Origin: Candidatus Methanomethylophilaceae archaeon
GTDB taxonomy: Archaea > Thermoplasmatota > Thermoplasmata > Methanomassiliicoccales > Methanomethylophilaceae
Direction of reading: 5' to 3'
Length of the DNA: 64,000 nt
Assembly: GCA_050950505.1 (NCBI GenBank)
Contig: JBMNHS010000001.1
Span: 128,001 to 192,000, forward strand
The translations under genes and the position numbers were made by a program. This document shows positions 4,696 to 41,426 of the stretch, piece by piece (position 1 is the stretch's first letter; every line of letters starts with the position of its first letter). The notes below the pieces were generated by a model. That model was not told where the DNA came from. It saw nothing but the letters and a program-made list of their open reading frames with translations, and did not search any database.

Positions 4696-5277
4696 TCACT
4701 TCTTGACTGTTTCGCCGCCGGGAGACGTCTCCGCGAATACCGTCCCGCCGAATCTTTCCATCGTCACCCTCTCTTTTCTCCATATGTCGGGCGACAATCC
4801 CGCTTTCATCGAGAGCTGTTCCAGATACTGAACCGGATTCCAGCTCCATTCCACGGGAACCTGAGGAAGCAAAAGCCCTCTGCGGCCCCGGTATGACATT
4901 ATCAATCCGTCCCGTCCGATTTCTATTTTGCCGATCAGGTCTTCCGAAGTGGAATAATCGATCTCTTCGGGGGGTGTGAGGACGGTTACTTCAAAAACGC
5001 ATTCTTTGGCTTCTTTTGAGGTCAGGGGAGGGAACCGGGGGTCGTGACATGCCGAACGTGCGGACTGCACAATGGCTTCTCCCAGAGTGAAAAACGGCTC
5101 GGGATACCCTATGCAACCCCTCAGATCGCCGGAGGGATATCGGTTTATCGTCACAAACGCCCCGGAAGGCTCTCCGAATTCATCTGGGATTGAGGGATCT
5201 TCATTTATTCCTTCGGTTTCTGCCTCGGCAGCCAATCTTGCGAGTTTGACCGCTTTGCGGCCGAAATCAGTGTTCAT
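4696..5277 (-). CDS. AMMECR1 domain protein (TIGR00296-like)
   Basis: GAFVT, LRGCIG, DPRFPPL, GRDGL, GLLLPQV motifs. Confidence 0.92.
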   Translation of the reverse strand: MNTDFGRKAVKLARLAAEAETEGINEDPSIPDEFGEPSGAFVTINRYPSGDLRGCIGYPEPFFTLGEAIVQSARSACHDPRFPPLTSKEAKECVFEVTVLTPPEEIDYSTSEDLIGKIEIGRDGLIMSYRGRRGLLLPQVPVEWSWNPVQYLEQLSMKAGLSPDIWRKERVTMERFGGTVFAETSPGGETVKK

Positions 5278-5308: not shown

Positions 5309-5758
5309 TCAGTCTCCGTTATCCTCGGGAGTCCTTATTTTTATGGATTTGGGTGTCGGACGTTGCTCCGCTTCGCGGTCATCGTCTTCCGGAGGGCGTC
5401 TTTCGTATTCGCGGCGATATTCGTACTCGTTGCGATAATCATCCTCATCCCTCATAAAAGGGGGACGAGGCATGGATCTTATCAACGAATTGATTCCCAT
5501 GACGAATTCGAAACCCGCGTTCATGAAGTGACCCTGTACCTTCGGATCCGTAAATGCGTCAAAAGTCTGTTTTGCGGAGCTTTTGGCTTCCTGTTTGGTT
5601 CTGTCGACGCGGTCGCGTACCTTGTCTTTGCCTTTATTGAAGGTTTCTTCGGCGGATTCCTTCTCCCTTCTAATGAGTTCTTCAAGAGTTTCGAGGTTAT
5701 CCCTGACGAATTTCTCAAGTTCTGACTCAATGTTACGTTTTTCTTCATCTCCTGTCAT
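5309..5758 (-). CDS. hypothetical coiled-coil/amphipathic protein (ArsA partner candidate)
   Basis: GGTGA SD overlaps the ArsA-family stop; alternative start 5770; charged helical N-terminus, amphipathic segment, C-terminal KSIKI. Confidence 0.75.
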   Translation of the reverse strand: MTGDEEKRNIESELEKFVRDNLETLEELIRREKESAEETFNKGKDKVRDRVDRTKQEAKSSAKQTFDAFTDPKVQGHFMNAGFEFVMGINSLIRSMPRPPFMRDEDDYRNEYEYRREYERRPPEDDDREAEQRPTPKSIKIRTPEDNGD

Positions 5759-5762
5759 GGTT

Positions 5763-6956
5763 TCACCCATCTAGATTAGCAACGTTCTTACGCTTTAATC
5801 TTACCGTTAATTCTTCGTCGACCAATTCCGCGTCCAATATATCCGCGTCCTTCAGAGTCAGGGGGAGGGTGACCGTTTTCTTGTGGCTTCCGATCTGTAT
5901 TATCAACACGTCATTCTCGCCTCTGAACATTTCGATGTCGTCTTTCTTGACAAATGGCATTTTGAGTATGAGTCTGTCCACGCCGCCTTCCGAATCGAAT
6001 CTCATCGGACTCTCGTTCGCATAAACTTCGGAAGGATCGGAATCTCCGAACAGCATATCGGCCAAAATATCCAGTTTTTCGGATCCTCTCAGTTCGGTGG
6101 GCATCTGCATGGCATTCAGAATCTTCAGCGGACTGAAAGCGTGGTCTATTTCCTTCAGATATTTTTCCTGCTCTTCCAGTCTGTCTTTGAAATAGCCCTG
6201 TTCCAACCCTTCTCTGGGGTATATTTTGTTGACGATCAGACACTCGACGGTTTTGTTGTAAAGACATGTGTATGTGTAGGTGCGCATGGTTTCGTTGATG
6301 ACCATGCGTTCGGGATTGAGGACCAACCGTATGGTCGTCATATCAGGATTTTCAAGAATGTCCTTGACTTTGATCATCTTGTCCCTTATTTCATCGATGC
6401 TGTTCATCACTTCTTTGCTTGGAAGAGGAAGATTGATGACTTTGGAAACAGTATATCTGGCCACCGACAACAGCTTCTTGAACATCGAATAGAATCTTTC
6501 GATGTACCAATTGGAAATGTCGGGGAAACTCAGCAACTGAAGTGTTTCTCCCGTGGGAGCCGTGTCCATGACTATTACGTCATAGTCGTCGTTTTCTTCG
6601 AACTGCAACACATAGAACAATGCCGCAATCATTTCCATTCCGGGAACGATTGCCATTTCTTCCGCGGTTATGTCGCCCAGGCCTTGGGAAGTCAGAAATG
6701 TGGTCACGTAATCGCTTATATCGGACCATCTCGTGCGCATTTCGTAAATGATGTCGATTTCCAACACATCGAGATTTTCACCTATGTTGAAGGGGTAATT
6801 GGGAAGATCCACATCCAGGGAATCGCCGAGAGAATGGGCGGAATCGGTGCTCATCAACATCGTTCTGTATCCAAGTTTCGCCAATCTTCGGGCGGTGGCC
6901 GCGGAAACCGATGTTTTTCCGACACCGCCTTTACCTGTATAGATTATGATCCTCAT
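5763..6956 (-). CDS. ArsA/Get3-family ATPase with C-terminal HSP20/alpha-crystallin-like domain
   Basis: GKGGVGKT P-loop, STDSAHSLGD switch I, DTAPTG switch II, NK motif; ~75 aa beta-rich C-terminal extension. Confidence 0.9.
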   Translation of the reverse strand: MRIIIYTGKGGVGKTSVSAATARRLAKLGYRTMLMSTDSAHSLGDSLDVDLPNYPFNIGENLDVLEIDIIYEMRTRWSDISDYVTTFLTSQGLGDITAEEMAIVPGMEMIAALFYVLQFEENDDYDVIVMDTAPTGETLQLLSFPDISNWYIERFYSMFKKLLSVARYTVSKVINLPLPSKEVMNSIDEIRDKMIKVKDILENPDMTTIRLVLNPERMVINETMRTYTYTCLYNKTVECLIVNKIYPREGLEQGYFKDRLEEQEKYLKEIDHAFSPLKILNAMQMPTELRGSEKLDILADMLFGDSDPSEVYANESPMRFDSEGGVDRLILKMPFVKKDDIEMFRGENDVLIIQIGSHKKTVTLPLTLKDADILDAELVDEELTVRLKRKNVANLDG

Positions 6957-7040: not shown

Positions 7041-7430
7041 TCAGCCGACCAGATGCACCGAGTGGCTTTGTCCCGATCCCACAGTAACTTTCTTGAAATC
7101 CAGTTTGGCTCCGTCATCCCCTCCGTAAGACACCAGTCTGATTTCCAGACTGTGATCTTTCTTCAGTTTGAAGGATTGGTATTCGTACGTTATTTCAAGG
7201 GAACCGTCAGGTTCCAGAACGGCACCTTCCAACGCGACGTCGTCGTTTATGTAAATCCATATTTTGGAATCTTCGTGCTCACTGTACGGAGTCACCTCTA
7301 TGGAAATCTCCGACGTGTTGTAGAATACGTTTTTGAGGGCGCTTCCTCCGTACACAAAGATTGCCGCGGAAGCGGATATTATCAGAACCGCCGCCAACGC
7401 GGCATACATTGTTTTTTTGGAAACGGACAT
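7041..7430 (-). CDS. hypothetical membrane-anchored protein
   Basis: N-terminal hydrophobic helix (YAALAAVLIISASAAIFVY) followed by a beta-rich soluble domain. Confidence 0.65.
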   Translation of the reverse strand: MSVSKKTMYAALAAVLIISASAAIFVYGGSALKNVFYNTSEISIEVTPYSEHEDSKIWIYINDDVALEGAVLEPDGSLEITYEYQSFKLKKDHSLEIRLVSYGGDDGAKLDFKKVTVGSGQSHSVHLVG

Positions 7431-7566
7431 GGGATTATCTCTCAAGGAACGGTGTTTGCCGGATGGGATGCAGCATACGTATGTTTTGACATCGCGGACT
7501 CCTGCGATATAAGCAGAACGGTATGAAGATAAATAGATTTAGAAGTTAAGGTCGGAGAAGAGGGGG

Positions 7567-40731: not shown

Positions 40732-41426
40732 TCTACCGTAGTCGTGTATTCGCCTTCGGTTTCGGCGATGCGCTTCTTGAGCAGGAGGTATCTGACGAAC
40801 TTACCCATGAGCTGTCCGATGGGAATGCTTATCAGGGTGTAAATCAGAATCCAGGAGGGCAGCACCATGGTTGCCATCAGATCCACCCCGGCCGCCCAGG
40901 GGACGTTGATGAAAAGAAGCGATTCCGGAACACTATGGTTCAGGAAGTAAAACACCCATGCGTAAATCGGTATCACGATTATCATCGTCACGGGCATAAT
41001 TTTCATCTGATCCTGGCTGGATTCCATGGATTTGGACATCATGACGGGCTGTTGATCCGTGAGTTTCTTGATTTTATACAGATTGTTCTCCAATCTGGCT
41101 TCCCTCATCTCCCGGTTGAACTCTTTCTGAAGGTGCTGGCTCTTGGCCATCTTCAGAGGGTCGGAAAGAACGGTTCTGATGACGCTGCTGAGCGTCGTCA
41201 TTATCAGACCCGCAATCATCAGGGTCAGGACGGGGTACTGCCCGCCGAACCCTATGTATTTGAACACGAAATTCAGATACTGTCCAACCTGTTCCCTGTA
41301 CATCATAACGACGAACATCAGAACCAGGGAGAGCAGCATCCCGATCATTGTGTTCTTGGGCATCTGCGGCATGTTTTCCATCTGGTTGCCCATCTGTCCT
41401 TTTCCTCCCGGATTAGCCATTTTCAT
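40728..41426 (-). CDS. DUF106 / EMC3-TMCO1 (Oxa1 superfamily) membrane protein
   Basis: TM, coiled coil, KIMPVTMIIVIPIYAW, WILIY; directly downstream of secY. Confidence 0.88.
   Translation of the reverse strand: MKMANPGGKGQMGNQMENMPQMPKNTMIGMLLSLVLMFVVMMYREQVGQYLNFVFKYIGFGGQYPVLTLMIAGLIMTTLSSVIRTVLSDPLKMAKSQHLQKEFNREMREARLENNLYKIKKLTDQQPVMMSKSMESSQDQMKIMPVTMIIVIPIYAWVFYFLNHSVPESLLFINVPWAAGVDLMATMVLPSWILIYTLISIPIGQLMGKFVRYLLLKKRIAETEGEYTTTVE

Follow-up and report, generated by a model that had tools for sequence, protein, structure and literature searches.

What does a small gene without any family annotation do directly behind the gene of a Get3-type ATPase in an archaeon? The two genes occupy positions 5309–6956 on the minus strand of the 64-kb stretch of DNA that we analysed (the window; G000:C1:128001-192000). 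The window is part of a 1.33-Mb, 99.6%-complete archaeal genome, the nearest named relatives of which are Methanomassiliicoccales, specifically Methanomethylophilaceae-type metagenome-assembled genomes. The first gene encodes a Get3/ArsA-family ATPase with a C-terminal alpha-crystallin (HSP20-like) domain (ACD), and the second encodes a helical protein, hereafter the partner, with an Ile-x-Ile (IxI) type motif near its C-terminus. Our answer, which we hold with slightly better than even confidence, is that the genes form a two-gene module in which the ACD would be a docking site for the IxI-tailed cofactor, whose helix would act on the ATPase. The docking and the role of the helix are the parts of this model that we infer.

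The ATPase gene (5763–6956) encodes 397 residues and ends with a TGA codon at 5763–5765. The ATPase domain comprises residues 1–303 (6048–6956), as delimited by the match to the Pfam family PF02374 ArsA_ATPase (E 2.4e-83, 280 bits vs a cut-off of 24.3); no other protein of the genome matches PF02374 over its full length. The deviant Walker A P-loop GKGGVGKT at residues 8–15, switch I TDSAH at residue 37, and switch II DTAPTG at residue 131 are intact, and their positions are invariant in the ATPase alignment A3. The ACD is formed by seven beta-strands from residues 318–388 (5793–6005), and was recognized from the match of Pfam family PF17886 ArsA_HSP20 to residues 328–386 (E 2.6e-15) and from the strands of the AlphaFold2 model. 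The model, with a pLDDT of 81.5 and a pTM of 0.82, has a Get3 fold followed by the beta domain. In the insert region, helices 144–168 and 181–202 are connected by a loop predicted with low confidence.

The top match of the ATPase model in a Foldseek search was the archaeal TRC40 (PDB: 3zq6). The whole chain including the beta domain could be aligned to Get3d from Nostoc (NosGet3d, All4481; PDB: 8egk, 3igf) and from Arabidopsis (AtGet3d, At1g26090; PDB: 8elf) over approximately 395–424 columns with a TM-score of about 0.65–0.70, and the ACDs of the model and of these three structures were aligned together. By sequence, the closest solved relatives of the ATPase domain are 5zme, 3zq6, and 3ug6, and ARSA1 and archaeal Get3 proteins (E 1e-43 to 1e-38) are nearer to it than All4481 (E 2.5e-17) or AtGet3d (E 6.5e-9). 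The protein reaches 235 bits with the NCBIfam model TIGR00345 GET3_arsA_TRC40, the cut-off of which is 135, and fails the NosAFP equivalog with 134 bits vs a cut-off of 325. Judged from its sequence, the ATPase is a putative homodimer-type Get3/TRC40-like chaperone or targeting factor for hydrophobic segments, and not an arsenite pump. The initial annotation of the locus had described a single-domain ArsA-family ATPase without a CxxC motif and without ars genes in the window, which the Pfam match, the motif scan, and a scan of the genome confirmed. It had also taken the beta-rich C-terminal extension for an ACD, in agreement with PF17886, the AlphaFold2 strands, and the Foldseek alignments.

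The Pfam family name ArsA_ATPase and an ArsB-family permease encoded elsewhere in the genome would fit a different reading, in which the ATPase is a single-domain ArsA powering arsenite efflux and the partner is an ArsD-like accessory. We give this reading hardly any weight. The ATPase is single-domain instead of tandem, its only two cysteines, at residues 231 and 239, do not form a CxxC, and the partner lacks cysteines altogether. The ArsA equivalogs of NCBIfam were failed by wide margins (TIGR04291 88.8 bits vs 650, NF041417 116.7 bits vs 800). The 64-kb window contains no ars genes; the ArsB-like gene is located on contig 2, and matches to SBF and HTH_5 and a sub-threshold ArsD-like match are all outside the window and far from the ATPase gene. 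Moreover, in sister families of the order it is an ACD-less paralog of the ATPase that is paired with a thioredoxin-fold Cys-Cys protein.

The partner gene (5309–5758) encodes 149 residues, from an ATG codon at 5758–5756 to a stop codon at 5309–5311, within a full open reading frame (ORF) spanning 5309–5770. Translation from the in-frame ATG at 5770 would lengthen the protein by four residues. We placed the start at 5758–5756, which is probably the true one, because relatives begin at the methionine of MTGDEE. The start codon is located 4 nt past the stop codon of the ATPase gene, which itself lies inside a GGTGA Shine-Dalgarno-like site at the gene junction (5759–5767), and the partner is translationally coupled to the ATPase gene. 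The overlap of the ATPase stop with the ribosome-binding site of a protein of about 150 residues had been pointed out in the initial annotation. The partner gene was found at at least 99% identity in RNA-library contigs from two studies, which is a weak sign of expression, as DNA carry-over is possible. A 901-nt contig spans 5200–5792, and a 207-nt contig spans 5632–5838 and crosses the gene junction; the ATPase gene is covered by RNA-library contigs in parts only.

The partner is a small, soluble, mostly helical protein. In the AlphaFold2 model, calculated from a 95-row alignment, helices are formed by residues 2–20, 22–69, 72–95, and 100–119. The acidic N-terminal long helix (residues 2–69; 5552–5755), with block pLDDT values of 84–98, is found only in the long form of the partner from the family of the window (f1); the short forms in sister families lack it. 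The core amphipathic helix (residues 71–97; 5468–5548), delimited by alignments A1, A4, and A5 and by hhalign, contains the invariant His77 (5528–5530) and the near-invariant Glu84 (5507–5509), in the conserved pattern His-x3-small-x2-Glu. It is followed by a charged linker rich in Tyr, Asp, Glu, and Arg (residues 102–135; 5354–5455), the length and sequence of which vary among relatives. Helix 100–119 within this part was predicted with low confidence, with block pLDDT values of 54–70 over residues 101–130, and there is no regular structure from residue 120 on. The I-K-I motif, an IxI-type tail evident from the sequence and from an alignment column, is formed by residues 139–141 (5336–5344). 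Eight residues follow it, and the motif is thus near-terminal, not terminal, in this genus; its position and sequence had been given correctly in the initial annotation, which called it C-terminal.

The partner matches no Pfam family at E-values up to 10, including those of the Get4, Get1, Get2, and Sgt2 types, and no NCBIfam family. Foldseek comparison of its model to the PDB yielded no match, and a wide structure search returned generic coiled coils alone, with a Z-score of 6.8 or less and an rmsd above 9, which is uninformative. DUF5304, a candidate identity from the ESM Atlas (0.86), was rejected: the cut-off of PF17230 was reached in none of five pair-bearing actinobacterial genomes, and six more partners were unmatched. 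A literature search with the term DUF5304 found no paper.

The ATPase and the partner occur together throughout the order. An ACD-type ATPase is encoded in 150 of the 151 genomes. A long-form profile, constructed from eight close homologs, detected the partner in 60 of the 63 genomes of the family of the window and in almost none from the other families of the order; it matched 91 cluster representatives among 1.84 billion. The ORF directly downstream of the ATPase in those other families is a shorter relative of the partner, with 81–114 residues. It contains two copies of the helix motif with invariant His and Glu, and terminates exactly in basic-Lys-Ile-x-[Val/Leu]-acid. The apparent lack of the partner in these families is a matter of profile sensitivity, because the ATPase is nearly universal, the short relatives are located downstream of it, and the short-form profile A2 also matches long forms, including the partner from the window.

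In all 60 loci of the order that were examined, the partner ORF is directly downstream of the ATPase. An IxI-type motif is present within the last 45 residues of all 57 scored partner ORFs. The motif is at the very end in 29 of them, and is followed by a tail in the 28 others, which are the long form of the family of the window. Three loci were dropped from scoring, one since the ATPase was outside the fetched stretch (L017) and two since the script chose a wrong ORF (L036, L051); the motif-bearing frame is visible in all three. In all 33 rows of A4, the joint alignment of long and short forms, the motif column reads [IV]-x-[IVLF] and His77 is conserved; Glu84 is conserved in nearly all. The conservation of IxI, which the initial annotation had named as a check, is thereby supported for the order.

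Several loci of the order deviate from the common arrangement. In genus g2 of the family of the window (L033, L038), the partner is 270–290 residues long and contains a long helical insert rich in Arg, Asp, Glu, and Ala between the N-terminal and core helices. The ATPase frame is split at L051 and L052 by a frameshift or an assembly error, with the downstream partner ORF intact. Many archaeal long forms (among P0012–P0094) have a C-x2-N-x2-C motif after the His helix.

Among the loci examined, the partner is restricted to ATPases with an ACD. A second, ACD-less ATPase paralog is encoded in sister families and in two other families of the phylum. No IxI-tailed ORF is located downstream of this paralog in any of seven loci, six of which have at least 1.8 kb of downstream sequence. 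Four of the seven encode a small downstream protein of one kind, which was identified as thioredoxin-fold (PF13192) in the two that were scanned. In these four loci (L194-L197, families f3 and f7), an N-terminal Cys-Cys pair is present in the three full-length copies of the small protein. The ACD-less paralog and the thioredoxin-fold gene constitute a different two-gene unit, which is possibly ArsD-like.

The pair extends beyond the order. Three genomes of the phylum that lie outside the order were matched by the short-form profile, each of them right after the ATPase. Of 20 further phylum loci that were taken, 18 had enough downstream sequence, and two (L199, L205) were cut by contig ends. 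All four loci of a Thermoplasmatales-like family (f10) have a downstream ORF of 59–66 residues ending in Lys-Ile-x-Ile-Lys, and the tail is also present in the single locus of family f51. No IxI-tailed downstream ORF was found at the examined loci of families f8 and f22, and a tailed partner was found in none of five loci of family f34. In all five of the latter (L206-L210), the ACD-type ATPase is followed within about 40–55 nt by an ORF of 454–456 residues. In the only one of these loci that was scanned (L206), Pfam identified this ORF as SRP54, which connects the ATPase to membrane-protein targeting by gene order.

A scan of one genome per species yielded 80 full-length ATPase relatives, ACD included, with 35–63% identity, from Chloroflexota, Acidobacteriota, Cyanobacteriota, Chlorobiota, Bacillota, Actinomycetota, Dormibacterota, Desulfobacterota-type genomes, Planctomycetota, and others. 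We searched their surroundings for a same-strand ORF of 45–220 residues that starts between −60 and +250 nt and has a terminal [IV]x[IVL] followed by at most two polar residues. Such an ORF is present at 41 of 77 assessable bacterial and other archaeal loci, compared to 86 of 2673 background ORFs with the same terminal tail (3.2%). One of the 41 (L111) looks spurious, and four additional near-misses (L099, L104, L124, L125) were recognized by eye.

The bacterial partners, aligned in A6, share a strongly charged His...Glu helix, after which come a conserved Arg and an Ile-Asp pair. Comparison of the archaeal short form (A2) with the bacterial alignment by hhalign gave a probability of 98.3% and an E-value of 1.3e-14 over 52 columns including the tail. 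Alignment A5, in which the partner from the window is the first row, matched A6 with a probability of 93.6% and an E-value of 2.1e-7, placing the core helix from the window on the bacterial helix. The statement in the initial annotation that bacterial ATPases of this kind have similar His/Ala/Glu-helix proteins beside them thus proved right. Pfam contained no significant family for 16 bacterial and five archaeal partners besides that of the window, and NCBIfam none for nine bacterial and one archaeal partners. A search with A4 for natural fusions of the ATPase and partner, or for longer forms, scored nothing, which is weak evidence. The gene pair is widespread and not limited to one lineage, and it looks ancient. 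Across the aligned sequences, the two elements conserved throughout the partner family are the His-x6-Glu amphipathic helix and the C-terminal [IV]-x-[IVL] tail.

In many bacterial partners (L109, L133, L139, L140, L144, L152, L154, L163, L167, L169, L171, and other rows of A6), a cysteine pair, CxxC or CxC, precedes the His helix by about 20 residues. Together with the invariant His, the cysteine pairs hint at a metal or redox site in a part of the partner family; the protein from the window is cysteine-free.

The partner ORF could be a mere conserved neighbour, or non-functional, without a physical link to the ATPase. It would suit this view that the partner lacks a family annotation and an informative fold match, and that one Anaerolineales genome contains an unlinked partner homolog. 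However, gaps of 4 nt or overlapping stop and start codons are retained across archaeal and bacterial phyla, together with the motifs and significant profile matches, and the ORF is represented in the RNA-library contigs. We therefore regard this view as very improbable. The unlinked homolog (L184, G418:C1:608509-608652; E 8.8e-9) has the tail and no ATPase within 1.5 kb, and the ACD-type ATPase locus of the same genome (L107) has no partner downstream.

The form of the tail points to its possible binding site. The only HSP20-family protein of the genome, encoded at L182 1495-1989 (minus strand, G000:C1), has 164 residues and the C-terminus Arg-Arg-Ile-Glu-Ile-Glu, which matches the partner tails in form. 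The C-terminal IXI motifs of small heat-shock proteins, here termed sHSPs, as well as BAG3, bind to the beta4-beta8 groove of ACDs, according to the passages of PMC6212398 cited here. Because the partner tails match the form of the cell's own sHSP tail, and because of the IXI and BAG3 precedent, the simplest reading is that the tail binds to the ACD of the ATPase. By its tail, the cofactor would be anchored in this ACD's beta4/beta8 edge groove. The variable charged linker would allow the His/Glu helix to extend to the body of the ATPase, and the tether would keep the helix at a high local concentration beside it. The helix may then act as a regulator of the ATPase cycle or of the dimer, or it may gate or plug the hydrophobic client chamber. 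The predicted complex of the ATPase dimer (A3 twice) and the partner (A4) had ipSAE values of 0.23 and 0.16, compared to the mark of 0.32, and, with controls absent, speaks neither for nor against binding.

The same likeness of the tails can be used to argue that the partner docks on the ordinary sHSP of the cell, bridging the ATPase to the sHSP network or competing with sHSP oligomerization, since IXI-groove binding is generic among ACDs (PMC6212398). We consider this improbable: the partner tracks and is coupled to ACD-type ATPases and is missing beside their ACD-less paralogs, which a separate sHSP as the target would leave unexplained. Given the shared form of the tail, the sHSP and the ACD of the ATPase could conceivably engage in cross-talk.

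The tether to the ACD could also serve another end, in which the partner helix is inserted into the client groove of Get3 as a client, plug, or inhibitor. The core helix is the most hydrophobic region of the partner, the logic of the tether is the same as in docking on the ACD, and the closed hydrophobic chamber of Get3d held a lipid, as stated in the passages of PMC10248533 cited here. Nevertheless, the core helix carries the invariant His and near-invariant Glu plus Asn, Arg, or Lys, and its mean hydrophobicity, at most 0.82 on the Kyte-Doolittle scale over 19 residues, is far from transmembrane-like; the segment is amphipathic. Both the two polar residues kept on the same side of the helix and the strong charge of its bacterial counterparts speak against a client that is simply buried, and we judge insertion into the groove to be unlikely, although less so than docking on the sHSP. 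The reading of the partner as a tail-anchored Get3 client was rejected, since the hydrophobic segment is located in the middle of the protein, is too polar, and is followed by a charged C-terminus.

Docking of the tail on the ACD of the ATPase, which we continue to prefer, has to be weighed against several observations. In the family of the window, the IxI motif is followed by up to about 40 residues, and is not a free C-terminus. The ACD is packed on the Get3 dimer interface in published Get3d structures (PMC10248533). The partner model consists of long helices without an informative fold match. Cyanobacteria, Chlorobi, and several Chloroflexi have an ACD-type ATPase, complete with the ACD, and no partner downstream: no tailed downstream ORF was found at the cyanobacterial loci or at three Chlorobi loci, and no partner was detected when two genomes of cyanobacteria and one of Chlorobi were searched whole. 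The ACD is kept without a partner in these lineages, and it therefore has at least one partner-independent role. Comparison of ACD columns between partner-linked and partner-less ATPases gave no help either, as Phe335 and Ile/Val352 differ in the cyanobacterial clade only; this signal is confounded by phylogeny and was not used.

A quick maximum-likelihood tree of 104 ATPase rows, midpoint-rooted and without plant or other eukaryotic rows, places partner-linked archaeal and bacterial ATPases together with partner-less cyanobacterial and Chlorobi ATPases in a 93-row ACD clade (SH-aLRT 93). Because the cyanobacterial ATPases are nested among partner-linked lineages in this tree, it suggests that the partner is ancestral and was later lost or moved. 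A more far-reaching proposal, to which we give somewhat less than an even chance, is that in the whole Get3d-like clade the ACD would be a receptor for an IxI-tailed cofactor, effectively a split sHSP. The His-x6-Glu protein would be the ancestral missing partner that controls ATP turnover or the opening of the chamber, and cyanobacteria, and through them plant Get3d, would later have lost or replaced it.

Other genes in the surroundings of the pair are on the same strand. An AMMECR1-family gene (4696–5277) is located downstream of the partner after a gap of 31 nt. A gene of this family also follows the partner in three other loci (L036, L044, L046), and a 4Fe-4S-type Cys-rich protein is encoded there in other families. 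Upstream, an ORF of 134 residues (7041–7445) ends 85 nt before the ATPase start; its product has an N-terminal hydrophobic anchor, belongs to no Pfam family, and is not tail-anchored. A homolog of EMC3_TMCO1/DUF106, of the Oxa1 superfamily and Get1-like, is encoded at 40797–41231 on the minus strand (G000:C1:168797-169231; PF01956, 75 bits), about 34 kb from the ATPase, and is a candidate for the membrane insertase in a pathway of the Get3 type.

Co-inheritance of the partner with Get3 ATPases of the ACD type reaches from Thermoplasmatota to Acidobacteriota, Chloroflexota, Bacillota, Actinomycetota, and others. If the proposed docking is correct, the ACD of Get3d-type ATPases may serve as a platform for a regulatory cofactor. 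Barlow et al. 2023, in the passages available, tie ACD-bearing Get3d to photosynthetic lineages, place the ACD at the Get4 site, and call its role in Get3d unclear and the Get3d partners yet to be found (PMC10248533). Our model is a concrete hypothesis for this open question of ACD role and partners. Bacterial pairs such as those from Brevibacillus or Paenibacillus relatives are tractable models of this system in prokaryotes.

The ATPase from the window resembles Get3d in having one Get3 domain, a C-terminal ACD, and no CxxC, and in the midpoint-rooted tree cyanobacterial and Chlorobi homologs fall in the large clade that contains it. Unlike Get3d, it belongs to a non-photosynthetic methanogen and has canonical P-loop and switch motifs, and unlike cyanobacterial Get3d loci, its locus contains a coupled IxI-tailed partner. 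Full-length ACD-type relatives are also encoded in many non-photosynthetic bacteria, outside the photosynthetic restriction of Get3d. Farkas et al. 2019 had described ACD-bearing Get3 homologs in non-photosynthetic bacteria and in an archaeal 'Group 11', listing the class for Euryarchaeota, Thaumarchaeota, and several bacterial phyla in the text passages cited here (PMC6593721). Their class, with a single domain, a hydrophobic groove or TRC40-insert region, an ACD, and no CxxC, is that of the ATPase from the window (PMC6593721). The partner gene is not mentioned in those text passages, which do not include the supplements, and it was not found described in full-text literature and family-library searches. 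The system had been put forward as a candidate for an undescribed one in the initial annotation. For the ATPase this does not hold, as its architecture is already published and not new; as far as the literature and libraries searched go, the partner represents an undescribed and unannotated protein family.

The docking of sHSP IxI motifs and of the IPV motifs of BAG3 resembles the proposed arrangement in that a short [IV]-x-[IV] motif is located on a flexible segment near an ACD, and BAG3 is a precedent for a protein other than an sHSP docking on an ACD through IPV motifs, as described in excerpts of PMC6212398. Unlike in those systems, the ACD of the proposed arrangement is part of an ATPase, and the tail is carried by a separate small protein.

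Small proteins or helices that bind to an ATPase dimer include Get4, Get1, and Get2 of eukaryotic Get3, and MinE and ParB of SIMIBI/ParA-type ATPases. They control nucleotide hydrolysis or client hand-over. No resemblance of the partner to the coiled coil of Get1 could be claimed. Tethering through an IxI motif on an ACD would be a new mode compared to the Get cofactors, MinE, and ParB. The partner from the window is a long-form, archaeal variant of a putative cofactor that is widespread and accompanies a known class of ATPases.

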